The notes beneath the pieces were generated by a model. It searched no databases. It had not been told where the DNA came from and worked only from the letters and a program-made list of their open reading frames with translations. Below are positions 34,739 through 57,010 of a stretch of 64,000 nt of DNA, piece by piece; within the stretch, counting starts at the first letter, position 1, and each line of letters starts with the position of its first letter. Location: contig OZ252299.1 in the NCBI GenBank assembly GCA_965250285.1, positions 192,001-256,000 of the forward strand, read 5' to 3'. Source of the stretch: Myxococcota bacterium (GTDB lineage: Bacteria; Myxococcota_A; UBA9160; UBA4427). Made by a program: the position numbers and the translations under genes.

Positions 34739-36160
34739 ATGAGCCGCTCGATCCTGATCATCGAGGACGAGGATCTGCTGCGCAGCGAGCTCGCCCGGCA
34801 CTACGAGACCGAAGGCTGGGCGGTCGAGCAAGCAGCGAACCTCGTCGAAGCGCGGGCGGCCCTGGCCGCCGACGCGGGCACCGGTCTCGTCGTCGTGAGC
34901 GACATGAACCTCCCCGACGGCAACGCCCTCGATCTGCTCGACGAAGTGCGCGCGCGACCGAGCGGCGCCAGCGAATGGATCTTCCTGACTGGCTACGGAA
35001 CGATTCCCGACTCGGTGCGCGCGCTGCGCCTCGGGGCGTTCGACTTCCTCGAGAAGCCGTGTCCACTCGACCGACTCGACCTCGTCGTCGCCGGCGCTCA
35101 CCGAAGCGTGCGCGCACACCAACGGCTCGAAGACCAGCAGGCCCTGCAGTCGCGCCGCTTCGGCGCCAGCGCGTTCATGGGCACGAGCGAGGCGGCAGAG
35201 CGTGTCCGTGACATGCTCGAGAAGCTCGCCGGTGTCCCGTTCTCTTCGCTGGTCATCGGGGGCGAGACGGGCACCGGCAAAGGTCTCGTCGCGCGCATCC
35301 TGCACTCGACGGGCAGCCGCAGCGCCGGCCCGCTGGTCGAGATCAACTGTGCGGCGCTGCCCGCCGAGCTGCTCGAGTCGGAGCTCTTCGGCCACGAGGC
35401 AGGGGCATTCACGGGCGCGAAGGGGCGCCACCGCGGACTGCTCGAGCAGGCCCACCAGGGCACGGTCTTCCTCGACGAGATCGGTGAGATGGAGGCCCCG
35501 CTCCAGGCCAAGCTCCTGACGGCCATCGAAGACCGGGTGTTTCGCCGGCTCGGAGGCGACAAGACGATCCAGGTCGACATCCAGGTCATCGCGGCGAGCA
35601 ATCAGGATCTGTACCAGGCGGTCGCCGACGGTGGCTTCCGGGAGGATCTGTATCACCGGCTCTCGGTCGTGCAGGTCGAGCTGCCCCCGCTGCGCGACCG
35701 AATCGAAGACCTCGAGGTGCTGGTGCCGGCGTGCCTCGCCGAGTTCAACGCGAAGTCGGGCAAGCGGGTCACCAAGGTGCCCGACGAGGCCTGGCAGCGC
35801 ATGCGCAGTCATCGCTGGCCGGGCAACGTGCGCGAGCTTCGCAACGTGATCGAGCGCTGCGTGCTCTTTGCCGAGGACGAACTGCTGCCGGCCGAGTGGC
35901 TGCAGCTGGGGGACGCCCGGCCGAGCCCGGCCGATGCCGCTGCGGGCGCCGACGGGGATGCGCTGCACCTGCCCCTCGACGGCTCGATGGCCCTCGACGA
36001 CATGGAGAAGTTCATCCTCGAGACGGCGCTCGAGCGGGCGGGGCAGAACGTGGCGCAGGCAGCGCGCTCACTCGGCATGACCCGACAGACGCTGCGCTAT
36101 CGCATCCAGAAGTACGGTCTGCGCGAAGTAGTCGAGGATGGCGAGGCCGAGGCCGACTGA
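34739..36160 (+). CDS. Sigma54-dependent response regulator (NtrC/AtoC family)
   Basis: REC (IIEDE, SDMNLP), AAA+ (GETGTGK, GAFTGA, FLDEIG, FREDLYHRL, WPGNVREL) and Fis-type HTH. Confidence 0.96.
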   Translation: MSRSILIIEDEDLLRSELARHYETEGWAVEQAANLVEARAALAADAGTGLVVVSDMNLPDGNALDLLDEVRARPSGASEWIFLTGYGTIPDSVRALRLGAFDFLEKPCPLDRLDLVVAGAHRSVRAHQRLEDQQALQSRRFGASAFMGTSEAAERVRDMLEKLAGVPFSSLVIGGETGTGKGLVARILHSTGSRSAGPLVEINCAALPAELLESELFGHEAGAFTGAKGRHRGLLEQAHQGTVFLDEIGEMEAPLQAKLLTAIEDRVFRRLGGDKTIQVDIQVIAASNQDLYQAVADGGFREDLYHRLSVVQVELPPLRDRIEDLEVLVPACLAEFNAKSGKRVTKVPDEAWQRMRSHRWPGNVRELRNVIERCVLFAEDELLPAEWLQLGDARPSPADAAAGADGDALHLPLDGSMALDDMEKFILETALERAGQNVAQAARSLGMTRQTLRYRIQKYGLREVVEDGEAEAD

Positions 36161-38527: not shown

Positions 38528-39097
38528 TCACGCGCGGCAGCGAACGAACACGATCCGGTCGGCCGACTCGATGCGTGCGGCGACGTGGGTGGTGCCCCGG
38601 CGACCGCTCGCGGTCGCGCAGGTGAGCAGGCCGCTGATCCAGCCGACCAGCGACGGCGAACAAGGTCGGTGCGCCTCGAGTTCGAGCAGGTCACCGGGCA
38701 GCGCCAGGCGAGGGCGTCGCCAATGCCCGAGCCGAATCAGGCGATCGAGTCGCAGGGCGAGGCGCGTCGTGGGCGCCTCTACGAGGGCCGTGATCCGCGG
38801 CACGCTGCGGCGACCGAGCTCACGCAACACGACGGGCATGCGGCCGCCGTGGACGTCGACGATCGCTTCGATGACCCGTTCGGCGACCGCGACCGGGATC
38901 CACTGATCTTCGGTCGGTGGCTCGAAGAGCAGGGCGCGCTCCTTCCCCCGCAGCAGCGCATCGAGCGACACGATGGGCCGCCCGCGTTCGGCGACGAGCT
39001 GGCCGAGCCAGTCGACCGCCGGTGCAACGAGGTCACCGCGCACGTGGTCGCAGGGTGCGGAATGAAGCGAAACCGGGTCGCGGGACGTCGCGCGCAT
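38528..39097 (-). CDS. Hypothetical protein (possible V4R/HNOB-like ligand-binding fold)
   Basis: W.PV....R..E, LRELGR and GWISGLL patterns; ATG 39097 lies 10 nt after a sigma28-like motif. Confidence 0.5.
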   Translation of the reverse strand: MRATSRDPVSLHSAPCDHVRGDLVAPAVDWLGQLVAERGRPIVSLDALLRGKERALLFEPPTEDQWIPVAVAERVIEAIVDVHGGRMPVVLRELGRRSVPRITALVEAPTTRLALRLDRLIRLGHWRRPRLALPGDLLELEAHRPCSPSLVGWISGLLTCATASGRRGTTHVAARIESADRIVFVRCRA

Positions 39098-39107
39098 ACC
39101 CTCGTGC

Positions 39108-39133
39108 ATCGGCGCGGGCAGCGTGGGGCTTGA
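39108..39133 (-). promoter_or_regulatory. Putative sigma28 promoter
   Basis: Minus strand TCAAG-N15-GCCGAT. Confidence 0.55.
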
Positions 39134-39180
39134 CGGCCGGCTTTGCGGCGCGCGGCCCGAAGGGGGCCGAAGCGGGGCGC

Positions 39181-41517
39181 TCAGTCACTCTGCGCCGCAC
39201 CGCCCGAGCCGAAGCGGGGCGGCGGTTCGGGCAGGCGCAGCAGGAGCGCCGCGAGGAGCGTCACGTCGGCGAGCAGGCAGAGCACCATCACGCTGCCGGT
39301 CAGCCAGCCGAGGTTGCGCGTGATCGCGAACTCTGAGAATGCGAAGAGCCCGAAGGCCGCGGTGAGCATGAGCGTGCTCGCGGTCACCGGCGGCAGCACC
39401 TCGCCCAGACAGCGACGCAGGGCGTCGACGGGGGCGAGGCCCGCGCTTCGCGCGACGACGAACGTGGTCGTCACGTGGATCGTGTCGTCGACCGCGATGC
39501 CGAGGGCGAGGCTCCCCATGACGACGGTGCCGGCGTCGATGGGAATGCCGAGCAGGCCCATGAACCCGAAGATGATCACGAGCGGGATCGCGTTTGGGAC
39601 GAGCGCGACCGCCGCGAGGCGCGGCCAGCGGAAAATCGCGAACAGGATCAGAGAGATCACGGCGAACGCGACCGCGAGGCCGCTCAGCTGGCCGTAGGCG
39701 ATGGCCTCCTGCGCGCGGGCGAACTCGTACATGATGCCGGTGGGCGTCGCGGTCGTGCCCGCGACGCCGTGCTCGCTCCACCAGGTGCGCGCATGGCCCG
39801 CCAGCTCGACGAGCTGTGCCGAGGCGTTGTCGTCGACGCGGAGAATCACGTTCGCCGTCTCTCGACCGGGCGTGATCACGTCGTGGATCATCTCGACCGA
39901 CTCGAGCATCAGCATGTACTGCGCTGCGAGCATGCGGCTGTCGGGCAAGGGCTGACTCGCGTCGTCCAGAAAGCCGCCGTGGATCTGTCGCAGCGGGTCG
40001 GCGACCGAGATCGCCTTGCCGACCTCGATGCGCTGATCGAGGTGCGCCGTCAAGCCGTCGATGGCACGCAGCACGTCGGGCTCGAGCACGGAGCCGCCTG
40101 GCTCGGCCTCGATCACCACGTTCATCGGGCTGATGCCGGAAAGCTCGGCGCGGATGGACTCGTACGCGTCGCGCACGGGATGCCCGATCGGGAGCCAGCG
40201 TGTCGCGTCGGTCTCGACGTCGACCGAGCCGAGCCCGAGCGCGACGAGCCCGGCCACGAGGGCCCAGACCCCGCCCACCCAGGCGGCGCGTCGATCGGCG
40301 AGGCGCGCGAGCGTCGCGGCGACCGGACCGCGCAGGCCGCCGACGAGTCGCGGCGGACGATCGGGCAGCGGGCGCAGGCAGAGCGCGGCCGGGACGAGGG
40401 TGAGCGTCGCGAACGTCACCGTCAGCACGCCGAGCGCGCCGAAAACGCCCGTGGCCCAGACCACCTCGATGCGAACCAGCGTCAGCGCAAGAAAACCGAC
40501 GACGGTCGTGAGGCCCGAGAGGGCGATCGGCAGCGTCACCGGGTCGAGCGCGTCGGCGAGCCCCGCCCGGGCGCGCACGCCACTGGCCGCCGTGAGGACG
40601 TGCATCGCATAAGCGCATCCGAGCGCGAGAATCGTCGACGGCAGCACCATCGTCGAGATCGACAGCGAGGATCCGACCCACCCCATGGCCGAGACGCTCA
40701 CCCACACGCCGGCCAGGCCGGGCAACAGACAGAGCAGCACGGCCAGGGCCGAGCGGAACATCCACAGCAGGAAGCCCCCGATCACGAGGGCGGTCAGCGG
40801 CGCGAACGTGAGGATCTCGCCCCCGGTTCGCTGATTCGCTTCGACCCGAAAGACGGGCACGCCCGACACCCGCGCGCCGATCGGGTCGGCGAGCGCATAG
40901 ACCTGCTCGAGGAGCCGGGCCTGTCGATCGGCCGCATCGGCTTCGAGGATCAGGTTGAGCGCGAAGGTGCGACCGTCGGCCGAGACCAGGCTGTCGGGCA
41001 GGATGCGGTCGCGGCCGGCGAGTCGGCGCGCACGCTCGGTCGCGGTCAGAAGATCGTGGCCGCCCGGATCGAACGCGGGATCGAGATGCAGCGTGCCTTC
41101 GACGTCGACGTCGATGACGGGCAGGCTCGCCACGCTGTCGACGCGGGCGACGCCTTCGAGGGTCTCGAAGCGCTCGCTCAGGTGCGCGACCCGGTCGAGT
41201 GTCTCGGGTGCCCAGGCTGGCTCGGCGGTGAGCGCGACGACGATCAGCTCGTCGCCGCCGAACAGGGTCTGGCTCTCCTGATAGACCGCCCACTCGGCGC
41301 CGCGATGATCGAGCACGCTGTCGGTCGAGGTGTCGACGCGCAGCCAGAGGAGCCCGGGCGAGAGGGCGATCAGAGCGAGCAGCCAGCCGACGATCGTGAC
41401 GGCCGGCCGGCGCATGGCGGCGCGGGTCAGGCCGCGCGGCAGCCGCGAGCGCGCAGCGAGCCAGGGCGGCGCGGCGCCGGGCCGCTCGCCTTCGGCTTCC
41501 GAATGCGCGTCGCTCAC
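39181..41517 (-). CDS. MMPL/RND-superfamily lipid transporter
   Basis: Two repeats of TM, periplasmic loop and 5 TM; FGGDE, SGLTTVVGF, LGIAVDDTIH; GTG start inferred (ORF track starts at 41550). Confidence 0.92.
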   Translation of the reverse strand: MSDAHSEAEGERPGAAPPWLAARSRLPRGLTRAAMRRPAVTIVGWLLALIALSPGLLWLRVDTSTDSVLDHRGAEWAVYQESQTLFGGDELIVVALTAEPAWAPETLDRVAHLSERFETLEGVARVDSVASLPVIDVDVEGTLHLDPAFDPGGHDLLTATERARRLAGRDRILPDSLVSADGRTFALNLILEADAADRQARLLEQVYALADPIGARVSGVPVFRVEANQRTGGEILTFAPLTALVIGGFLLWMFRSALAVLLCLLPGLAGVWVSVSAMGWVGSSLSISTMVLPSTILALGCAYAMHVLTAASGVRARAGLADALDPVTLPIALSGLTTVVGFLALTLVRIEVVWATGVFGALGVLTVTFATLTLVPAALCLRPLPDRPPRLVGGLRGPVAATLARLADRRAAWVGGVWALVAGLVALGLGSVDVETDATRWLPIGHPVRDAYESIRAELSGISPMNVVIEAEPGGSVLEPDVLRAIDGLTAHLDQRIEVGKAISVADPLRQIHGGFLDDASQPLPDSRMLAAQYMLMLESVEMIHDVITPGRETANVILRVDDNASAQLVELAGHARTWWSEHGVAGTTATPTGIMYEFARAQEAIAYGQLSGLAVAFAVISLILFAIFRWPRLAAVALVPNAIPLVIIFGFMGLLGIPIDAGTVVMGSLALGIAVDDTIHVTTTFVVARSAGLAPVDALRRCLGEVLPPVTASTLMLTAAFGLFAFSEFAITRNLGWLTGSVMVLCLLADVTLLAALLLRLPEPPPRFGSGGAAQSD

Positions 41518-41694
41518 GAGGCGGCCTCCCGCCGGCTGCGGATGCCGCACCCGTCGAGCCCCACCGCCACTGCGTGGGCGCGACGGCGCAGGGCGTGGGC
41601 GGGATCCGTCGTGTGCGGGGGTTTCGCAGCGATCTGAGGAGGCTCCCGGCGGTGAATTGGACCGCCTCTCGAGCGTGCAAGCGGCGCCAGAAAA

Positions 41695-41741
41695 TGGCGA
41701 TGCCGTTGCGAATTCGCAACTTATGATTCAACACGTTGATT
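41695..41741. promoter_or_regulatory. Regulatory cluster: sigma54-like motif, perfect 16-bp palindrome and IHF consensus site
   Basis: TGGCGATGCCGTTGCG (41695-41710, GG-N10-GC); GTTGCGAATTCGCAAC (41705-41720); minus-strand AATCAACGTGTTG (41729-41741) fits WATCAANNNNTTR. Confidence 0.55.
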
Positions 41742-42082
41742 CCAAACACACTTCTGCCAAAATGGGGGGGTCGAGGCAACCCGTTCTGGGGGGCGCCTGT
41801 CGTCGTCTCGCGATGTCGGCTCGAACTCGGGTTCGAATCGCACCCGCATCGCGAGGAGATACGACCGACGAAACGACCGAGCGGCGGGTCGTTTGAATCG
41901 GTCTGGCAGAGCCGGCGGTGCGCGTCGACACCATAGGAGCAGGGAGCCATGGGCTCCCCGACGGTGGCTCCGCGCGACCGTCGGCCGACTTCGTCTCGCC
42001 CATCGCCCTCGCCCGGGCGATCTCACGGGTAACGAGAGAAGTCGGCGCGCCATACCCCCCGCCGAAGCCCGATCGAGGGGCC

Positions 42083-44608
42083 ATGCTGGACCGGTCCGAC
42101 CGGATCGCTGACGACGCGTTGCGCGGGCTTCACCCCTCGGCGATCCGAGGGGACGAGGCCGTTCGCGGCGTGCTCGAGCGCGCCCGCCTGGCCGGCGCGA
42201 TCTTTCACCGAGGCCTCAACGCCCGGGTCGACCTCGAGACGGCCGAGCTGCTCGGGCTCGCCGGCGATCGACTGGTGCTCCGAACCCACGGCTTCGACCG
42301 GCGCCCGCGCCGTCAGGTCTTTCTGAACTTCGAGCTCGACGGGCGCCCCTACTTCTTCGCGACCGAGCCGCTCGAGTCGGTCGATGCCGGACGACTCGTC
42401 GTCGCGATGCCGAGCGCGATCTATTTCACCGAGCGCCGCGATCGTCACCGCGCTGCGCCGATCCCCGATCGCGGTGATCCGAGCCGGGTCGAGCTGAGTG
42501 CGCATGGGGATGCCTGGGTCGAGGCGCGCGTCGCCGACATCTCCGCCGGTGGACTCGGGCTCGAGGTCGAGAGCGACGGCCCGCTGAACGGCACCGGTGT
42601 GGCGGGCCAGGACGACGTCGCGATTCGCTTCGTCGACGGTCGACGTGCGGGCGAGTGGACCCGCGCGCGTGTCCGCAACCGCGGCGCCGACGAGCATCGG
42701 CCGGGCTGGACGCGCATCGGCCTGACCGAGGGCGCGGCGCGCGCGACACAGCTGATCGCGGTCGATCGACGCAGCGACGTCGTCGGCGGGCTCGAGGCGG
42801 CCGAGCCGGCGCGACACGGCGCCGACGAAGTCACCACGCGCATCGCCAGCCCCGAGATCGAGGTTGCCCGCTTCCTCGAAGCCGGCGGCCGCGAGATCGT
42901 GGCCCTGGTCGATTCGACGGGCCCGCGCGCGGGCGGTACGGCCGTGATCCTGCAGAACGGGTGGGGGCAGACCAAGGAGGCGCTGCTGCCCCTCGCCCGC
43001 ACCCTCGTCACGACCTTCGGCGCCCACGATGAGCCGCTCACGGTGCTGCGATTCGATGGCGTCCAGAAGCGCGGCGAGAGCGAGAAGGATGCGCCGAGTC
43101 GGATCCCCGGCCGCGAGTGCCACCGCTTCGTGTTCTCGCAGGGGGTGGCCGACCTTCAGGCGTGTGTCGACTACCTCCAGGCCGACCCCGATCGACGACC
43201 CGACCGAATCTTCGTCGTGAGCTTCAGCGCCGGTGCGATCGAGGCCCGCAAGGCGGTCGCGCTCGACCGCGGCGCGCGCATCGACGGCTGGATCAGCGTG
43301 GTGGGGGCGCCCGACCTGCAGTCGATGACCCGCAGCATCTCGGGCGGCGTCGACTTCGTCGCGGGCTTCGAGCGCGGCCTGCGCTTCGGCCGCCAGGAGC
43401 TGCTCGGCGTCGAGGTCGACATCGACCTGCTGGCGCCCGACGCCGCCGAGCTCGGCGTGCTCCACATCGAAGATGCCCGGGCCGATCTCGCGTCGATCGG
43501 CGTGCCGATCGTGTGGATCCACGGCCAGCACGACGCATGGATCAGCCTCGACCGGGTCCGCGACGTGCTCTCGTACGGCGACACGTCACGGCGCAAGCTG
43601 ATGCTGTTGCCCATCGCCCATCGCCTCGAGACCAGTCGACAGGCGAGTGAGACCTTCCGGCTGATCGCCCACGAGCTCGCGGCGATGTCGCTCGGGCGCA
43701 GCCTCGAGCCCGTTGCGCCCGAAGCGCGCGACGTGCGCGCGAGACGGCGCGTCGAACGCACGCGTCGTCCGCGCCCGGGCACCGATCTGCGCGCGTTCTG
43801 GAAGGACTATCTGGTCGGGCGAGACGGCTCGGTCGGGATCGAGCTGATGACCGCGTGCAGCGACTATCGCCTGCTGATGGCCGAGCAGATCGATGCGCTC
43901 GAGCTGCAGGGGGGCGAGCGGATCGCCGATCTCGGCTGCGGCACGGGTTCCCTCGTGATGGAGCTGGCGCGTCGGGCCGATCGACCCGAAGGCCTGCACG
44001 TCTTCGGCTTCGACTACGTGCGAGACGCGCTCGCGCGGGGCCGGGCGCGCTTCGATGCGACGGGCCCGCACGGAGATCTGAGGCTGAACCTCACCGAAGC
44101 CAACCTCGACGTCGGCGCGGGGCCGCTCGGCGTGCCGGCCCCGACCGGCGCCTTCGACTGCGTGATGGCGTCGCTGCTGCTCAGCTACGTCGAGCGGCCG
44201 GCCGTGCTGCTCGACGAGATGCTGCGCATCCTGCGCCCGGGCGGCACGCTCGTGCTCTCTTCGCTGCGGCGCGACGCCGACATCTCGCGGCTCTACGTCG
44301 AGAGCCTGGCCGAGATGCAGGTGGGCGATGCCGCCGCCGCGCTGCCCGAGCTCGGTGCGGTCGGGCTCGACCGGGTCGCGCGCAACTTCCTGAACGACGC
44401 CGCCCGGATCCTCGAGTTCGAGGAGCAGGGGGCCTTCGCTTTCTGGGAGCCCGACGAGCTCGTCGACATGCTCGCCCGAGCCGGGTTCCGAGACGTCGAG
44501 ACCCGCCTCGCGTTCGGGACGCCCGCCCAGGCGGTCGTGGTGCGCGCGCAGCGCCCGGCGGCCGTGCTGGTGCGCCCAGCGACGAGCGAGCGCGCCTACG
44601 GCACCTGA
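42083..44608 (+). CDS. PilZ-domain / LuxD-like acyl-ACP thioesterase / class I SAM methyltransferase fusion protein
   Basis: PilZ RxxxR (ERRDRHR) and DxSxxG (DISAGG); alpha/beta-hydrolase VSFSAG, HDAW, AHRL; methyltransferase ADLGCGTG and LRILRPGG. Confidence 0.85.
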   Translation: MLDRSDRIADDALRGLHPSAIRGDEAVRGVLERARLAGAIFHRGLNARVDLETAELLGLAGDRLVLRTHGFDRRPRRQVFLNFELDGRPYFFATEPLESVDAGRLVVAMPSAIYFTERRDRHRAAPIPDRGDPSRVELSAHGDAWVEARVADISAGGLGLEVESDGPLNGTGVAGQDDVAIRFVDGRRAGEWTRARVRNRGADEHRPGWTRIGLTEGAARATQLIAVDRRSDVVGGLEAAEPARHGADEVTTRIASPEIEVARFLEAGGREIVALVDSTGPRAGGTAVILQNGWGQTKEALLPLARTLVTTFGAHDEPLTVLRFDGVQKRGESEKDAPSRIPGRECHRFVFSQGVADLQACVDYLQADPDRRPDRIFVVSFSAGAIEARKAVALDRGARIDGWISVVGAPDLQSMTRSISGGVDFVAGFERGLRFGRQELLGVEVDIDLLAPDAAELGVLHIEDARADLASIGVPIVWIHGQHDAWISLDRVRDVLSYGDTSRRKLMLLPIAHRLETSRQASETFRLIAHELAAMSLGRSLEPVAPEARDVRARRRVERTRRPRPGTDLRAFWKDYLVGRDGSVGIELMTACSDYRLLMAEQIDALELQGGERIADLGCGTGSLVMELARRADRPEGLHVFGFDYVRDALARGRARFDATGPHGDLRLNLTEANLDVGAGPLGVPAPTGAFDCVMASLLLSYVERPAVLLDEMLRILRPGGTLVLSSLRRDADISRLYVESLAEMQVGDAAAALPELGAVGLDRVARNFLNDAARILEFEEQGAFAFWEPDELVDMLARAGFRDVETRLAFGTPAQAVVVRAQRPAAVLVRPATSERAYGT

Positions 44609-44664
44609 GCGGGGCCGACCGCGGCACACGGGCGCGCCTTTGCGGGCCAAGCCCCCGAATTTCA

Positions 44665-44690
44665 TCAAGATTCACTCGTCGAAGGCCGAT
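44665..44690 (+). promoter_or_regulatory. Putative sigma28 promoter
   Basis: TCAAG-N15-GCCGAT, 9 nt before ATG 44700. Confidence 0.55.
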
Positions 44691-44699
44691 GCGCCGGGC

Positions 44700-47435
44700 A
44701 TGCCGGACCGCACCCGCGACGAGGCCACCCAGCGCCGCGCGCTGTATCGCGAATTTCGCGAGATGACCGAGGGCAAGCCCCTCGTCGACTCGCTGCGCAA
44801 CGCCGCCCTGATCTTCGGTGCCCTGCAGACGATCTTCTTCATCCCGGCCGACTGGCTGCTCTTTCCGGATCAGTTCTCGTTCTTCCTCAAGGCGCGCCTC
44901 GCCGAGAATGCGCTGCTCGCGCTCGTCTACTTTCAGATCGCGAAGCGGGCGCCGGTCGCCGGCGCCGCGCTGGTCATGTGGTCGGGCGCGGCGCTCTTCC
45001 TCGCGATGGTGCACGCCACCGGGGGCGTCGAGAGCGGCTACTACGTCGGGCTGATCCTGATCGTCATCGGCATGGGGGTGCTCGCGCCGATCTCGGCGAC
45101 CCAGGCGAGCTGGATCAACGGGCTGATCTTCGCCGGCTACACCGCCGTGCCCTTCATCAGTCACGGCACGAGCGAGCCGATCGCCTGGCCGACCTTCGCG
45201 ATGCACGCGTTCTTTCTCGTCACGGCGTGCTTCGAGTCGATTCTCGCGTGCTTCCACATGGACCGCATGCGTTTTCAGGACTTCCTGCAGAAGCGCGAGA
45301 TCGAGCGTGCGCGGGACGAGCTCGCCGAGCTCGACCGGGCCAAGTCGCGCTTCTCGGCGAACGTGCACCACGAGCTGCGCACGCCGCTCACGCTGATCCT
45401 CGCGCCCCTCGATGCCCTGCGAGGCCGCGAGTTCGGTGAACTCTCCCGGGACGTGCGGCACGTGCTCGACACGATGCACGCGAACGGCCGCCGTCTCTAC
45501 AAGATGATCAACAACCTGCTCGACCTCTCGAAGCTCGAGAGTGACCAGCTCGAGGTCGTTCGGCGGCCGACGCATGTGGGTCGGTTGATTTCCGAGCTGG
45601 TCACCGCCGCGCAACCGCTCGCCGAGCGCAAGGGCGTCACGCTCGAGATCGCTGGCTTCGACGACGCACCCGAGCTGAACGTCGATCCCGAGGCGATCGA
45701 GAAGGTCTTCGTGAACCTCGTCGGCAACTCGCTGAAGTTCACCGAGCCGGGCGACCGCGTGCGCGTCGAAGCCGAGCGCATCGACGATGGCCTCGAGATC
45801 CGCGTGGTCGATACCGGCATCGGGATCCCACACGAGAAGGTCGACTCGATCTTCGACCGATTTGCCCAGGTCGACGGGTCGGTGACGCGCCGACACGAGG
45901 GCACCGGCATCGGTCTGGCCATCGCGCGCGAGATGGTCGAGCTGCACGGCGGTCGCATCGTCGCCGAAAGCGCGGGGCTCGGCGAGGGCACCACCGTGCG
46001 GGTCTGGCTGCCGCCCGGCCAATGCGACGCGAACGCCGAAGACGAGGTGCTGCAGACCGACAGCGGTTCGGTGCTCGGTCTCTCGCACTCGATCGAAGCG
46101 GTCGAAGCCGACCTCATGCTCGAGGCCGATGAAGCCGCCGCACACGGCGACGGCGCCGATCCGCGTCTCGATGACGTGGAGCGCACGGTCGAGCGCTACG
46201 AAGACGCCGAGATGGTGGCCGCACGCGGCGGCGTGAAGGGGCCCTCGGGCGAGGTCGCCGAGGTGTTGATCGCCGAGGACAACCCCGACATGCGGGCGCT
46301 GCTCGCGACGCTGGTGGGGCGGCACTACCGCGTGCGAGCTGCCCGGAACGGGCGCGAGGCGCTCGAGATGGCGCGCGAGCAGGCGCCCGATCTCGTCCTG
46401 TCCGACGTGATGATGCCCGAGATGTCGGGCACCGAGCTGTGCCAGGCGATCAAGTCGGATCCGTCGCTCGAGAATCTGCCCGTCGTGCTCGTGACCTCGA
46501 AGGCCGAAGACGAGATGAAGATCGAGGGGCTCGAGCTCGGTGCAGACGACTACGTCACCAAGCCGTTCCACCCGCGTGAGCTGCTCGCGCGCATCCACTC
46601 GCTCGTCCGCGTCAGCACGCTGCAGCGCGCGCTCGAGGGTCGCAACGATCAGCTCGAACGCACGCTCTCGGAGCTCAAGGAAGCCCAGGTCCAGCTCGTG
46701 AAGAGCGAGCGCCTCGCCGCCGTCGGTGAGCTGGCAGCGGGGATCGCCCACGAGGTCAACAACCCGGTCAACTTTGCCCTCAACGCAGCGCGGGCCATGC
46801 AGCTCTCGGTGGAAGAGCTCGATGACCTGGCCGAGTCGGACGGTGAGACCGCCAAGGAGCTGGCCGAAGCACAGGAGGTCGCCGAGACGATCCGCGAGCT
46901 GTCGGGGATCGTGAGTGAGGGGCTCAACCGCACGTCGGTGCTCGTCGCCGATCTGCGCGACTTCGCGTCGGGCAACCAGGGCAAGGCGCGCTCGACCGTC
47001 TCGCTCGAACGCGGCGTGCAATCGACCCTTCACCTGCTCGGTCGGGCCGCGTCCGATGCGGGCGTCGCGCTGGTGCCCGAGATTCAGGAGGGCGTGGCCT
47101 TCGTCGAGGGCGACGCCGGGGCGCTCAACCAGGTGATGCTGAACCTGGTGAAGAACGCGATCCAGGCGGTCGGCGAGGGCGGGCACATCGAGGTCGCGCT
47201 CTCGGGCGACGACGAGACCGTGCGGTTCACGGTGCGCGACGACGGGCCTGGCATCGACGAAGAGACGAGCCTTCGGCTCTTCGAGCCCTTCTTTACCACC
47301 AAGGCGCCGGGCGAGGGGACGGGTCTCGGTCTCTCGATCAGCCGGCAGATCGCGCGCGATCACGGCGGCGATCTCGACGTCGAGAGCACGCCCGGCGAAG
47401 GCGCGACCTTCACGCTGACCTTGCCGGCCATCTGA
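44700..47435 (+). CDS. Membrane hybrid histidine kinase: multi-TM sensor, HisKA/HATPase, REC, second HisKA/HATPase
   Basis: About 6 TM helices; HHELRTP, N/G boxes (NLVGNSLKF, DTGIG, GTGIGL); REC (IAEDN, SDVMMP, KPF); second AHEVNNP, NLVKNA, DDGPG, FFTTK, GTGLGL. Confidence 0.95.
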   Translation: MPDRTRDEATQRRALYREFREMTEGKPLVDSLRNAALIFGALQTIFFIPADWLLFPDQFSFFLKARLAENALLALVYFQIAKRAPVAGAALVMWSGAALFLAMVHATGGVESGYYVGLILIVIGMGVLAPISATQASWINGLIFAGYTAVPFISHGTSEPIAWPTFAMHAFFLVTACFESILACFHMDRMRFQDFLQKREIERARDELAELDRAKSRFSANVHHELRTPLTLILAPLDALRGREFGELSRDVRHVLDTMHANGRRLYKMINNLLDLSKLESDQLEVVRRPTHVGRLISELVTAAQPLAERKGVTLEIAGFDDAPELNVDPEAIEKVFVNLVGNSLKFTEPGDRVRVEAERIDDGLEIRVVDTGIGIPHEKVDSIFDRFAQVDGSVTRRHEGTGIGLAIAREMVELHGGRIVAESAGLGEGTTVRVWLPPGQCDANAEDEVLQTDSGSVLGLSHSIEAVEADLMLEADEAAAHGDGADPRLDDVERTVERYEDAEMVAARGGVKGPSGEVAEVLIAEDNPDMRALLATLVGRHYRVRAARNGREALEMAREQAPDLVLSDVMMPEMSGTELCQAIKSDPSLENLPVVLVTSKAEDEMKIEGLELGADDYVTKPFHPRELLARIHSLVRVSTLQRALEGRNDQLERTLSELKEAQVQLVKSERLAAVGELAAGIAHEVNNPVNFALNAARAMQLSVEELDDLAESDGETAKELAEAQEVAETIRELSGIVSEGLNRTSVLVADLRDFASGNQGKARSTVSLERGVQSTLHLLGRAASDAGVALVPEIQEGVAFVEGDAGALNQVMLNLVKNAIQAVGEGGHIEVALSGDDETVRFTVRDDGPGIDEETSLRLFEPFFTTKAPGEGTGLGLSISRQIARDHGGDLDVESTPGEGATFTLTLPAI

Positions 47436-47504: not shown

Positions 47505-48560
47505 ATGGCAGCGAAGAAGAAGAGCACCAAGAAGGCTTCGAAGAAGAAGGCGGCGAAGAAGAAGGCCGCGCGAAAGAAGACCGCGCGTCAGAAGACGGCG
47601 GCGCGCAAGAAGCTCGCCATCGCCAAGACGAGCAAGGGCCTCGCGCCGGGCGATCTCTCGCTCGGCGTCGAAGCGCCCGAGCTGGCGGGGCTGGTCAGCG
47701 AGATCGTCGGCCACGGCGGCGAGGCGCTGGGCGCGTACCGCGAGCCGCTCTCGGGTCGGCCGATGCTGCTCGCGGCGCTGCCGATCAAGTCGGTCGAGCC
47801 CACGCCGTTTCAGCGCGACCTGTCACCCACCCACACGAAGCGACTCGCGCAGAAGATCGAAGAGAGCGGATCGTTCCTCGACCCGATCATCGTGGTGCGC
47901 GGCGAAGACGGCCGTCTCTGGACGCCCAACGGTCGCCATCGTCTCGCGTCGGCGAAGGTGATCGGCCTGCAGTCGATCACCGCGCTCGTCTCGCCCGACG
48001 AAGACCTCGCCTTTCGCATTCTGGCGCTCAACACCGAGAAGGCGCACAACTTGAAGGACCGCAGCCTCGAGGTGATCCGGATGGCGCAGGAGCTCGCGCG
48101 CCGCCGGCCGCGCTCGCGCGAGACCGACTTTGCCGCCGAGTTCGAGGCGCCCGAGCTGCTGACGCTCGGCCTGATCTATCTCGAGAACGGCCGCTTCGCC
48201 GGCGGCGCCTACAGCCCGTTCCTGAAAAAGGTCGATCGCTTTCACACGAAGACGCTGCCGGCGAGCCTAAAGGAGCGCGAGGGCTACGCCGCGCGGCTGG
48301 TCGAGATCGACGGCGAGGTGAAGCGCATCATCGCCGAGCTGCAGGAGCGCGGGTTCAAATCGCCCTATCTGCGCAACTACGTCGTCGCGCGGATCAACCC
48401 GGTCCGCTTCCACCGGGCCAAGAAGGGCGAGACCGAGCCGCCGATGGCGATGAAGGCGGCGCTGATTCGCATGGCCGCGTCGGCGAAGAAGTTCGACGTC
48501 GCCGGCGTTCGCGAGCGCGATCTCGCGCTCGTGTCGGCCGCCGTGGGCGGGAGCGACTGA
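47505..48560 (+). CDS. ParB/Srx N-terminal-domain protein with histone-H1-like Lys/Ala-rich N-terminus
   Basis: AAKKKSTKKASKKKAAKKKAARKK tail; TPFQRD...DPIIVVR...PNGRHRL ParB-like motif. Confidence 0.8.
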   Translation: MAAKKKSTKKASKKKAAKKKAARKKTARQKTAARKKLAIAKTSKGLAPGDLSLGVEAPELAGLVSEIVGHGGEALGAYREPLSGRPMLLAALPIKSVEPTPFQRDLSPTHTKRLAQKIEESGSFLDPIIVVRGEDGRLWTPNGRHRLASAKVIGLQSITALVSPDEDLAFRILALNTEKAHNLKDRSLEVIRMAQELARRRPRSRETDFAAEFEAPELLTLGLIYLENGRFAGGAYSPFLKKVDRFHTKTLPASLKEREGYAARLVEIDGEVKRIIAELQERGFKSPYLRNYVVARINPVRFHRAKKGETEPPMAMKAALIRMAASAKKFDVAGVRERDLALVSAAVGGSD

Positions 48561-48564
48561 AGGC

Positions 48565-49077
48565 GTGTCGCCGCTGCGACTCAGCGTGATCCGCCACGCG
48601 AAGTCGAGCTGGAGCGACCCCGAGCTCGCCGATCACGATCGTCCGCTCAACAAGCGCGGACGTCGCGATGCACCCCGGATGGGTGAGCGCCTGCACGCTC
48701 GCGGATTCGCGCCCGACATCATCTTCACCAGCACGGCGCTGCGCGCACGGCTCACCGCCGACGCGATCGTTTCGGCCTGCGGGCTCGAATCGCGGGTGCG
48801 GGCACGGCGGGCGCTCTATCACGCCGAACCCGAAGAGATCCTCGACGTCGTCGAGGCGGGCGCAGCCGCGGCGGGGTCGCGACACGTCGCGATCGTCGGG
48901 CACAACCCCGGCTGCACCGAGCTCGTGGTGTGGCTCACGGGTGCCGACCTCGACAACCTGCCGACGTGTGGGGTGGCGACGGTGCGCATCGACGGCGAGC
49001 GCTACGCCGATGCGCGCAGAGGCGCGGGGCACCTCGAATCACTCGAGACGCCGAAGAACGATCCGCAACGCGCCTGA
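48565..49077 (+). CDS. sixA: SixA-like histidine phosphatase
   Basis: IRHAKSSW...DHDRPLNKRG, STALRA, VGHNP. Confidence 0.85.
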   Translation: MSPLRLSVIRHAKSSWSDPELADHDRPLNKRGRRDAPRMGERLHARGFAPDIIFTSTALRARLTADAIVSACGLESRVRARRALYHAEPEEILDVVEAGAAAAGSRHVAIVGHNPGCTELVVWLTGADLDNLPTCGVATVRIDGERYADARRGAGHLESLETPKNDPQRA

Positions 49078-55241: not shown

Positions 55242-55865
55242 TCAGCCGGGGCGCAGCTCGGCGGCGACCCAGTAGCGACCGGCGCCGTACTCGATGGTTG
55301 CGCCGGGCCGCCGCAGCAGCTCCGCGCCGAGTGGCGTCACGTGGAAGGACGCCAGCCAGCGCTCGAGCGCCCGGCGGAGGGTCGGCCAGAGCGTCGCGCC
55401 GTCGCCGAAGTCGCAGACGATGACTGCACCGCCCGGTGCGAGCTGGTCGAGGGCGTGGTCGATGGCCGTATCGGGTCGTTCGACCATCGAGAGGCAATAC
55501 GAGAACAGGACGCGATCGGGGGCGGCACCCAGCAGCGTGCGGTAGTCGGCGTTCTCGGCAAACCCGTCCATCAGCTGCACGCCGGGCAGGCGCTCGGCCG
55601 CGCGCTGCCGCATGACGCTGGACGGTTCGACGCCCCCGAATCGGGCTTCGGGCCGAAGGCCGCGGAGCACGTCGAGGTTGCGGCCCGTGCCGGGTCCGAT
55701 CTCGACGAGCCGCTCCCAGTCGGGATCGTCGGCGAGTCGACGCAGCGTCTCGTCGCGTCCGAGCAGGTAGTAGCGGCGCGTCACGTCGTAGATCGGCGCC
55801 GACCAGCCGTAGTAGCGGTCGAGGAACGCGCGCTGGGCCTCGAAGGCCTCACTCGCTGCGCTCAT
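55242..55865 (-). CDS. btaB: SAM-dependent N-methyltransferase of betaine lipid (DGTS) synthesis
   Basis: YY.W...IYDVTRRYYLLGRD, EIGPGTGRNL, FSYCLSM, CDFG, WLASFHV; overlaps btaA. Confidence 0.85.
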   Translation of the reverse strand: MSAASEAFEAQRAFLDRYYGWSAPIYDVTRRYYLLGRDETLRRLADDPDWERLVEIGPGTGRNLDVLRGLRPEARFGGVEPSSVMRQRAAERLPGVQLMDGFAENADYRTLLGAAPDRVLFSYCLSMVERPDTAIDHALDQLAPGGAVIVCDFGDGATLWPTLRRALERWLASFHVTPLGAELLRRPGATIEYGAGRYWVAAELRPG

Positions 55866-57010
55866 GCGTGGATCCGGTAGAAGTCGACGCGTCGGTACAG
55901 AGCGCTGCGATCGAGGTGGGTTGCCTCATCGCTCTCCGCGTCCATGCGAACGAGGTGGTCGCCGTAGCCGAGCGACTCCACCACGGGTTCCCGGGCGACC
56001 GAGCGCACGAGCATGACGCCGCCCTCGCGTCCGGTGCGCAGCACCTCGTCGAAGAGTCGCTTCTTCGTCGGCCCCGACATCCAGTCGGGGGCATCGCAGA
56101 AGCTGAAGTGACTCCAGGTGTTCGGGCCGGCCTCGCCGAGGACGTCGAACAGATTCCCGAGGTGGAAACGGGTCTCGGTCGGCGACTCGAGGCTGCGTTC
56201 GTGATGCGCTCGGCGGAGGTAGGGTGGTACCGCCTGCGGGTCTTCGTGGTTGAACGCGCCCGTCACGATGTACCAGGCGAACCAGTTGCGCGCGAGGTCG
56301 GTCTCGGCCAGCCGGTACATCGTCTTCTTGAACGCCGCCATCACGCTGTCGCCCGGATCGTCGAGCTCTTCGTCGAGATAGCGATCGCGCTGCTGACTGT
56401 TGACGCCGAGCGAGAAGTACTGGAGCGGCGAGCCCATGAACGCACGGAACCAGGGACGCTCGAGCACCGGCGCAATCCACTCATCGATCGCCTCGATCCG
56501 CTTGGCGAGGGGCAGCTCGACGACGCCACGGAACCACGCCGCGTCGACGCCACACTGGTCGCGGAAGAACGCGAGCATGCGCGCCGTCAGGCCGGTGCGA
56601 TAGAGCGATCGTTCGAAGAGGTCGTGATTGCGCTTCCAATGGCGCTGCATCCAGCGCGGAAGGCCGTCGGCGAGATCGCGCACGATCTTCTCAGGGGTCG
56701 GATGCCAGCCCCGGCCGAACAGATCGTAGAAGTCGCCGTACGAGCGCATTCGCCGGGCTGCGGTGGCCTTGAGCGCAGCCAGCGCGAGGTGGTGGCGATT
56801 GATGTCGACTGCGTCGATGCGTCGCGGGTGCGCGCCCAACATCCCCGCAACGCCGCAACCAGCGGCCGAGATGGCCAGCACGCTCGACTCCGTGTCGAGG
56901 CCCATGTGCCGCTCGTCGAGCTCGGCGTCCTCCCAGAGCATGTTGTAGACGAACACGTGCGCGAAGGTGTGCTGAAAGGCGCGGTCCTTCAGCTGCATGT
57001 CGAAGTTCAC
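55862..57010 (-). CDS. btaA: DUF3419 / SAM:diacylglycerol 3-amino-3-carboxypropyltransferase
   Basis: VYNMLWED...D, ISAAGC, AVDIN..HL.L..LK, NWFAW, PPYL, DAPDWM, DRSALY. Confidence 0.88.
   Translation of the reverse strand: MNFDMQLKDRAFQHTFAHVFVYNMLWEDAELDERHMGLDTESSVLAISAAGCGVAGMLGAHPRRIDAVDINRHHLALAALKATAARRMRSYGDFYDLFGRGWHPTPEKIVRDLADGLPRWMQRHWKRNHDLFERSLYRTGLTARMLAFFRDQCGVDAAWFRGVVELPLAKRIEAIDEWIAPVLERPWFRAFMGSPLQYFSLGVNSQQRDRYLDEELDDPGDSVMAAFKKTMYRLAETDLARNWFAWYIVTGAFNHEDPQAVPPYLRRAHHERSLESPTETRFHLGNLFDVLGEAGPNTWSHFSFCDAPDWMSGPTKKRLFDEVLRTGREGGVMLVRSVAREPVVESLGYGDHLVRMDAESDEATHLDRSALYRRVDFYRIHA

Follow-up and report, generated by a model that had tools for sequence, protein, structure and literature searches.

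Do the three large genes that lie together in a 64,000-nucleotide stretch of a Myxococcota bacterium genome (GenBank assembly GCA_965250285.1, contig OZ252299.1, positions 192,001 to 256,000; hereafter the window, in whose numbering positions are given) make, move and sense a common lipid signal? The genome, a single contig of 6.25 Mb and 68.6% G+C (GC) that contains the window, encodes there an MMPL-type transporter (39181-41550, minus strand), an 841-residue fusion protein that combines a PilZN-PilZ module, a LuxD-like hydrolase and a class I S-adenosylmethionine (SAM) methyltransferase (42083-44608, plus strand), and a membrane-bound double kinase (44640-47435, plus strand). An earlier note, written from the sequence alone, had taken them for exporter, cyclic di-GMP (c-di-GMP)-gated synthase and receptor of a methylated fatty-acid signal resembling the 3-hydroxy fatty acid methyl esters of the Ralstonia Phc system (phcBSRQ, known also from Cupriavidus and Paraburkholderia); the open reading frames (ORFs) on which it built were all recovered in place. 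The three genes are real and form a conserved module, and they are likely to constitute a lipid signalling cassette of the Phc type whose synthase has a new architecture and in which the fusion would make a methylated fatty-acyl molecule for a PhcS-like kinase. This synthase-receptor reading draws on gene linkage, a PhcS-like sensor domain, an intact LuxD-like catalytic triad and the occupation of the fusion's slot by PhcB-family enzymes in relatives, while its chemistry is predicted.

The domain order proposed for the fusion was confirmed by matches to each part. Of 8000 candidates scored in a homologue search, 137 proteins reached E ≤ 0.001, close ones being labelled Myxococcota or Deltaproteobacteria, and 102 near-full-length homologues among the matches listed were aligned; the AlphaFold model has a predicted local distance difference test score (pLDDT) of 89 and a predicted template-modelling score (pTM) of 0.87, and hydropathy indicates no membrane anchor. 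Residues 1-216 (42083-42730, plus strand), weakly matched by Pfam PilZ (E 3.5e-4), make up a YcgR-type PilZN-PilZ module with the c-di-GMP motifs RxxxR (119-123) and D/NxSxxG (152-157), which recur in 102 and 99 of the 102 aligned fusions, respectively. In the model the first 225 residues are predicted to fold as the two-barrel YcgR-type pair, the best fold matches being YcgR (5Y6F, E 6.7e-9), MrkH, PP4397 and MotI, so that both fold and motifs are those of YcgR/MrkH-type receptors. The alpha/beta hydrolase (residues 259-540; 42857-43702, plus strand) carries the triad S382, D484 and H513, each kept in all 102 aligned fusions, and finds the myristoyl-ACP (acyl carrier protein) thioesterase LuxD (1THT) as its top PDB match by profile (E 2.3e-5, or 1.7e-10 with distant members included) and as Foldseek rank 1 (template-modelling score 0.82 by target), with nucleophile, acid and histidine all aligned under the LuxD residue numbering that we take to be correct. 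Differences from LuxD lie in an identity of 15-16% and in the fusion to other domains; lux genes were not seen among the conserved neighbours of the fusion, and against the Pfam family Acyl_transf_2 the window domain gives no match and 9 of 55 members weak ones (best E 2.3e-5), all short of the gathering score. The methyltransferase (residues 601-825; 43883-44557, plus strand) has the SAM motif D616-x-G618-x-G620 followed by D644, invariant in all 102.

The receptor, which probably starts at the ATG at 44700, places a hydrophobic N-terminal domain before a HisKA-HATPase-REC-HisKA-HATPase series recognized by Pfam, in agreement with its earlier description as a multi-transmembrane double-kinase hybrid. 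Its phosphorelay residues H244, D589 and H704 (numbered from 44640) fall in motifs present in 86, 84 and 80 of 87 receptors, and the sensor domain (44715-45335, plus strand) has four helices over the hydropathy threshold, six in the aligned PhcS-like domain. In one variant (L121:11017-13731) the receptor ends in REC-HD-GYP, like a fusion of RpfC and RpfG. As Phc reference we used a plasmid operon of Paraburkholderia graminis, reached from a protein named PhcS by the Joint Genome Institute, the one so named among 2301 representatives that the membrane-domain profile matches at E ≤ 0.001. It encodes a 468-residue methyltransferase, a 445-residue membrane kinase and two receiver genes, with a cyclopropane-synthase-type gene upstream; the methyltransferase has Arg22, the residue altered in phcB R22C (PMC6989110, in the text available), and the kinase His233, near the PhcS histidine position H230 (PMC11960443, likewise). 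The window's sensor domain aligns with that of the Paraburkholderia PhcS-like kinase over 193 columns (hhalign 98%, E 2.4e-13), the Paraburkholderia domain scores 77 bits against the family profile (E 2.4e-21), and a reciprocal search with it among the 32,646 ORFs of the genome returns the window receptor as sole match. The kinase core of the Paraburkholderia protein is nearer to the receptor's second kinase (137 bits) than to its first (53 bits). By the parts of PMC9102662 and PMC11960443 available, PhcR is a receiver-plus-kinase relay that has no DNA-binding domain, and the C-terminal half of the receptor, REC-HisKA-HATPase, may be its counterpart. The two systems share a SAM methyltransferase gene adjoining that of a membrane kinase and a homologous sensor domain, possibly also the relay, and differ in that sensor and relay here form one polypeptide with two kinase cores and that the module has an MMPL gene and no phcQ-like gene; the best genome match to a PhcQ-like query is an unlinked REC-GAF-kinase.

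The synthases are another matter. Against the fusion methyltransferase profile the Paraburkholderia PhcB-like protein scores 26 bits, aligned over the Rossmann core only (132-138 columns), and is surpassed by unrelated methyltransferases encoded in the window's genome (36-55 bits for the seven best); the KPxGYxGD region common to PhcB-like proteins is missing from the fusion. Given the receptor's exclusive reciprocal match and this core-only likeness, the receptor is therefore PhcS-like and the synthase is not a PhcB, as the earlier note had anticipated in supposing a different synthase architecture. No PhcB-like gene was found in this genome with a search model built from the eight slot genes described below. 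A methyltransferase outside the PhcB family might have another product: the fusion could be a signal synthase whose LuxD-like domain passes the acyl group on to an amine or alcohol, with methylation at nitrogen, a hydroxyl or carbon, an alternative that we consider quite unlikely. It would suit the structure comparison, which found no close solved relative of this domain and, as the nearest, a mixture of N-, O- and C-methyltransferases with no clear best, as well as an insert of about 100 residues inside the methyltransferase of many distant homologues; yet no acceptor-making gene is conserved at the loci, and hydrolysis followed by carboxyl methylation requires no extra enzyme. Many distant fusions (L121-L144) bear this unannotated insert together with an extra N-terminal PilZ.

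How closely synthase and receptor are tied was assessed in 225 genomes of the class, which are kin to each other and often incomplete. The fusion occurs in 82, mostly as a single copy, and the receptor membrane domain in 96; 77 genomes have both, 5 the fusion only, 19 the receptor only and 124 neither. Neighbourhoods of about 8.5 kb per side were taken from 60 of the 81 other fusion genomes (61 loci with the window), and a phylum sample of 401 genomes contained 51 with a match to the hydrolase profile, including 24 from outside the class, each with an intact hydrolase triad. The expected co-occurrence of fusion and kinase held: a receptor lies within 7.5 kb of the fusion at 58 of the 61 loci in the class and at 22 of the 24 outside it; the three class exceptions are a contig end, a receptor just beyond the fetched stretch and a split module. 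Co-occurrence with MMPL held inside the class (an orthologue at 46 of 61 loci) and failed outside it (0 of 24, with one unrelated MMPL there), and the transporter is dispensable in the wider family. Other class neighbours are a REC-GAF-kinase (30/61), a dCMP deaminase-like gene (23/61) and a winged-helix ATPase regulator (21/61). In this genome the REC-GAF-kinase lies at C1:1578798-1580861, 1.3 Mb from the module, next to the deaminase-like gene that is the module's neighbour in other lineages; with this usual downstream neighbour so distant, and no DNA-binding output of its own, the module is not self-contained as once supposed. That two of these neighbours are also conserved among kindred genomes could mean that the linkage is inherited synteny without functional coupling. 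This seems extremely improbable: the trio has moved jointly to new neighbourhoods and outlived an inversion of the MMPL gene, in this genome it no longer lies at the deaminase/REC-GAF-kinase site, and in other classes fusion and receptor stay paired while sharing no further neighbour. Frameshifted or split copies of the module occur at L145 (genome G126), L088 (G178) and L081/L146/L193 (G035, whose pieces lie at three places on one contig), and at L142:4615-6036 a ketoacyl synthase gene comes after a fusion that lacks the receptor.

That the fusion does the job of PhcB is best supported by two non-homologous enzymes occupying one slot beside one receptor family. All 19 receptor-only genomes were surveyed, with 21 further stretches: MMPL and receptor are headed by a PhcB-family methyltransferase in 7, 11 break off at a contig end short of the slot, and the remaining genome holds a short kinase by itself. 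An eighth such slot is a second module in the fusion-bearing genome G145, so that the receptor is preceded by a PhcB-family enzyme at 8 loci (7 with MMPL), and therefore both enzymes fill one synthase slot. Their matches to the Paraburkholderia enzyme range from E 1e-20 to 4e-39. In four of them a PilZ with both c-di-GMP motifs is fused to the PhcB, and a cyclopropane-synthase-type gene comes next (L165:11315-12853, L172:8675-10135, L173:3908-5497, L183:9656-11110), which suggests, from their motifs, c-di-GMP control of both synthase types; the other four are short, accompanied by a desaturase and flanked by the same genes as the fusion at L079, L084 and L085, in inverted orientation. PhcB-like genes are rare, with 15 matches in 12 of the 225 class genomes, 8 of them at the slot (from which the model was built). 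Two receptor trees were rooted with the distant receptors that are paired with a fusion, one built from 96 of 121 receptors once partial and near-duplicate rows had been removed, the other from 29 rows. PhcB-paired receptors nest inside fusion-paired ones in two groups; a single origin is not rejected in the 29-row tree (approximately unbiased test, p 0.574). The exchange bears on the possibility that the fusion instead clears or modifies a signal or imported lipid, as an esterase with a methylation step, while MMPL imports and the kinase eavesdrops on other species. Such a role would accord with carboxylesterases being the next Foldseek matches after LuxD and with MMPL transport that could run in either direction. 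It is nonetheless very unlikely, as the fusion replaces a synthase-family gene and does not stand alongside it (7 of the 8 PhcB-slot genomes have no fusion match), and is not anchored in the membrane.

The remaining partner was correctly assigned to MMPL (Pfam PF03176, E 8e-28; 97.8 bits against a cut-off of 20.5, in two stretches that form the duplicated repeat). Eleven helices exceed the hydropathy threshold, the start is uncertain, and the score falls under the NCBIfam HAE3 cut-off, so that we describe it as an MMPL/HAE3-type resistance-nodulation-division (RND) transporter and a class-specific module member. At one locus (L177:7920-15125) the orthologue is fused to a methyltransferase domain and adjoins a different double kinase with a weak MASE6 match. 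Over 48 loci, sensor and synthase distances are correlated (Pearson 0.55, against 0.24 for the kinase domains), as would befit a matched pair, and MMPL distances follow those of the synthase (rho 0.68-0.72) more closely than those of the receptor (0.31-0.48). The latter pattern would favour a module in which the fusion makes a structural or secreted non-signal lipid for MMPL to export, the kinase sensing an outside cue and regulating the cluster only. Off-module MMPL orthologues beside acyl-CoA (coenzyme A)-synthetase-type or wax-ester-synthase genes, and a LolA-like gene near 3 of 61 loci, point the same way. We nevertheless judge it unlikely: the constant partner of the fusion is the receptor and not MMPL, the sensor is PhcS-like, and the enzymes that alternate with the fusion in the slot are of a family in which the studied member makes a signal, according to the available parts of the literature on it.

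Several observations weigh against the synthase-receptor reading itself. The PhcS-like domain belongs to the broad sensor family of 2301 representatives noted above; the reference operon is called phcBSRQ-like from size, gene order and marker residues, the studied Ralstonia proteins lying outside the comparison; and the 26-bit likeness to PhcB falls below that of unrelated local methyltransferases. The co-evolution signal weakens on a rank basis (0.44 against 0.31 over the 48 loci) and vanishes where MMPL separates the genes (0.31 against 0.32 over 26 loci), and no MMPL orthologue occurs at the distant loci. As for c-di-GMP, no GGDEF, EAL or HD-GYP gene was found at any of the 61 class loci, both PilZ motifs match in 12 of the 24 distant fusions only, and four of the eight slot PhcBs have no PilZ. 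Finally, PlpA is reported to retain the PilZ motifs without binding c-di-GMP (PMC8316039, in the text available), and the motifs are therefore no proof of binding. The same source describes the Myxococcus protein PixB, a PilZ-PilZ-enzyme fusion that does bind c-di-GMP; its enzyme is a GNAT acetyltransferase, unlike the fusion considered here, and the available part describes no cognate receptor for it.

If the synthase-receptor reading is correct, the LuxD-like domain would use S382 to take over an acyl chain from acyl-ACP or acyl-CoA and free the acid, and the methyltransferase would methylate it, most simply at the carboxyl group to give a fatty-acid methyl ester. Judging by its motifs, c-di-GMP bound at the YcgR-type module may tune the synthase rate in either direction. 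MMPL would move the product across the envelope, again in either direction, and the membrane domain of the receptor would bind it and switch the kinase-receiver-kinase chain. Desaturases, cyclopropane synthases, di-iron oxygenases and P450s at some loci, acyl-modifying genes being found at fusion loci also, could diversify the signal. The output would probably pass to the REC-GAF-kinase in the class, and distant relatives would use EAL or HD-GYP c-di-GMP phosphodiesterases, thereby closing a c-di-GMP feedback loop; EAL or HD-GYP genes lie within 8 kb of 15 of the 24 distant fusions, against about 0.015 expected from the gene density of this genome. The distant loci thereby recall the diffusible signal factor (DSF) system RpfF/RpfC/RpfG of Xanthomonas, which combines a thioesterase-released fatty-acid signal, a multi-pass hybrid kinase and a c-di-GMP phosphodiesterase output (PMC13220807, in the text available). 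RpfF, however, belongs to the enoyl-CoA hydratase family and works without methylation, and the fusion has no Pfam match to an RpfF-type enoyl-CoA hydratase.

The divergent orientation of MMPL and fusion was borne out and proves to be a trait of the window's subclade, MMPL lying between fusion and receptor in 26 of 41 scored loci. The region between them had been called lower in GC and rich in regulatory motifs. The former applies to a 161-nucleotide core (58.4% GC, 1.5th percentile of tiles) and not to the whole 532 nucleotides (66.9%, 28th percentile), and the latter reduces to one putative sigma-54-like -24/-12 site facing the fusion (41695-41709, plus strand) and one putative integration host factor (IHF)-consensus match (41729-41741, minus strand), both pattern matches to what we take to be the consensus sequences. 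The sigma-54-like pattern has 181 sites genome-wide (0.015 expected per 532 nucleotides) and the IHF pattern 14; the IHF-like match is downstream of the sigma-54-like site, an unusual geometry. Both sites are retained in a same-genus relative, and of 62 upstream regions, 2 contain the strict sigma-54 pattern and 1 the IHF pattern; the search turned up no sigma-70-type site. A sigma-54-dependent REC-AAA activator is encoded about 5.5 kb from the sigma-54-like site (34739-36160, plus strand), and at 7 of 61 loci an activator of this kind is found within 8 kb, with about 2.5 expected.

The small ORF downstream of MMPL (38528-39109, minus strand, 193 residues), once counted with the module, is probably a real gene. 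Among 60 related loci a single one, from the same genus, has a homologue (70% identity), and neither Pfam nor NCBIfam gives a match; the ORF is therefore no conserved part of the module. On the 3' side of the receptor, ParB-N-like and SixA-like histidine phosphatase genes (47505-49077, plus strand) recur at about 10 loci of the window's subclade, and the phosphatase could act on the kinase. Farther away, a DUF3419 and methyltransferase pair (55242-57010, minus strand) presumably resembles betaine-lipid btaAB genes.

Does the module belong to something larger? In the ESM Atlas, Acyl_transf_2-methyltransferase clusters occur most often in Verrucomicrobiota and Omnitrophota, those with PilZ in Nitrospirota; we treat these as leads. 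More tentatively than for the cassette itself, and somewhat short of probable, we entertain an undescribed and widespread quorum-sensing family in which PhcS-type receptors are paired with interchangeable non-homologous synthases (PhcB-type or LuxD-methyltransferase), the synthase itself serving as a direct effector of c-di-GMP and the receptor acting back on this messenger, in Myxococcota and in look-alike clusters of Nitrospirota, Verrucomicrobiota and Omnitrophota. The literature within reach, partly seen and with subscription journals and bioRxiv supplements beyond it, yielded no description of the fusion or the module. If true, the cassette would represent a new class of autoinducer synthase and a role for LuxD-family enzymes outside bioluminescence, and would extend Phc-type signalling far beyond Burkholderiales, into uncultured Myxococcota; should the broader family also exist, a second messenger would gate autoinducer production at the enzyme itself. 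The natural swap of fusion and PhcB at one receptor family offers matched synthase-receptor pairs for mapping ligand specificity.

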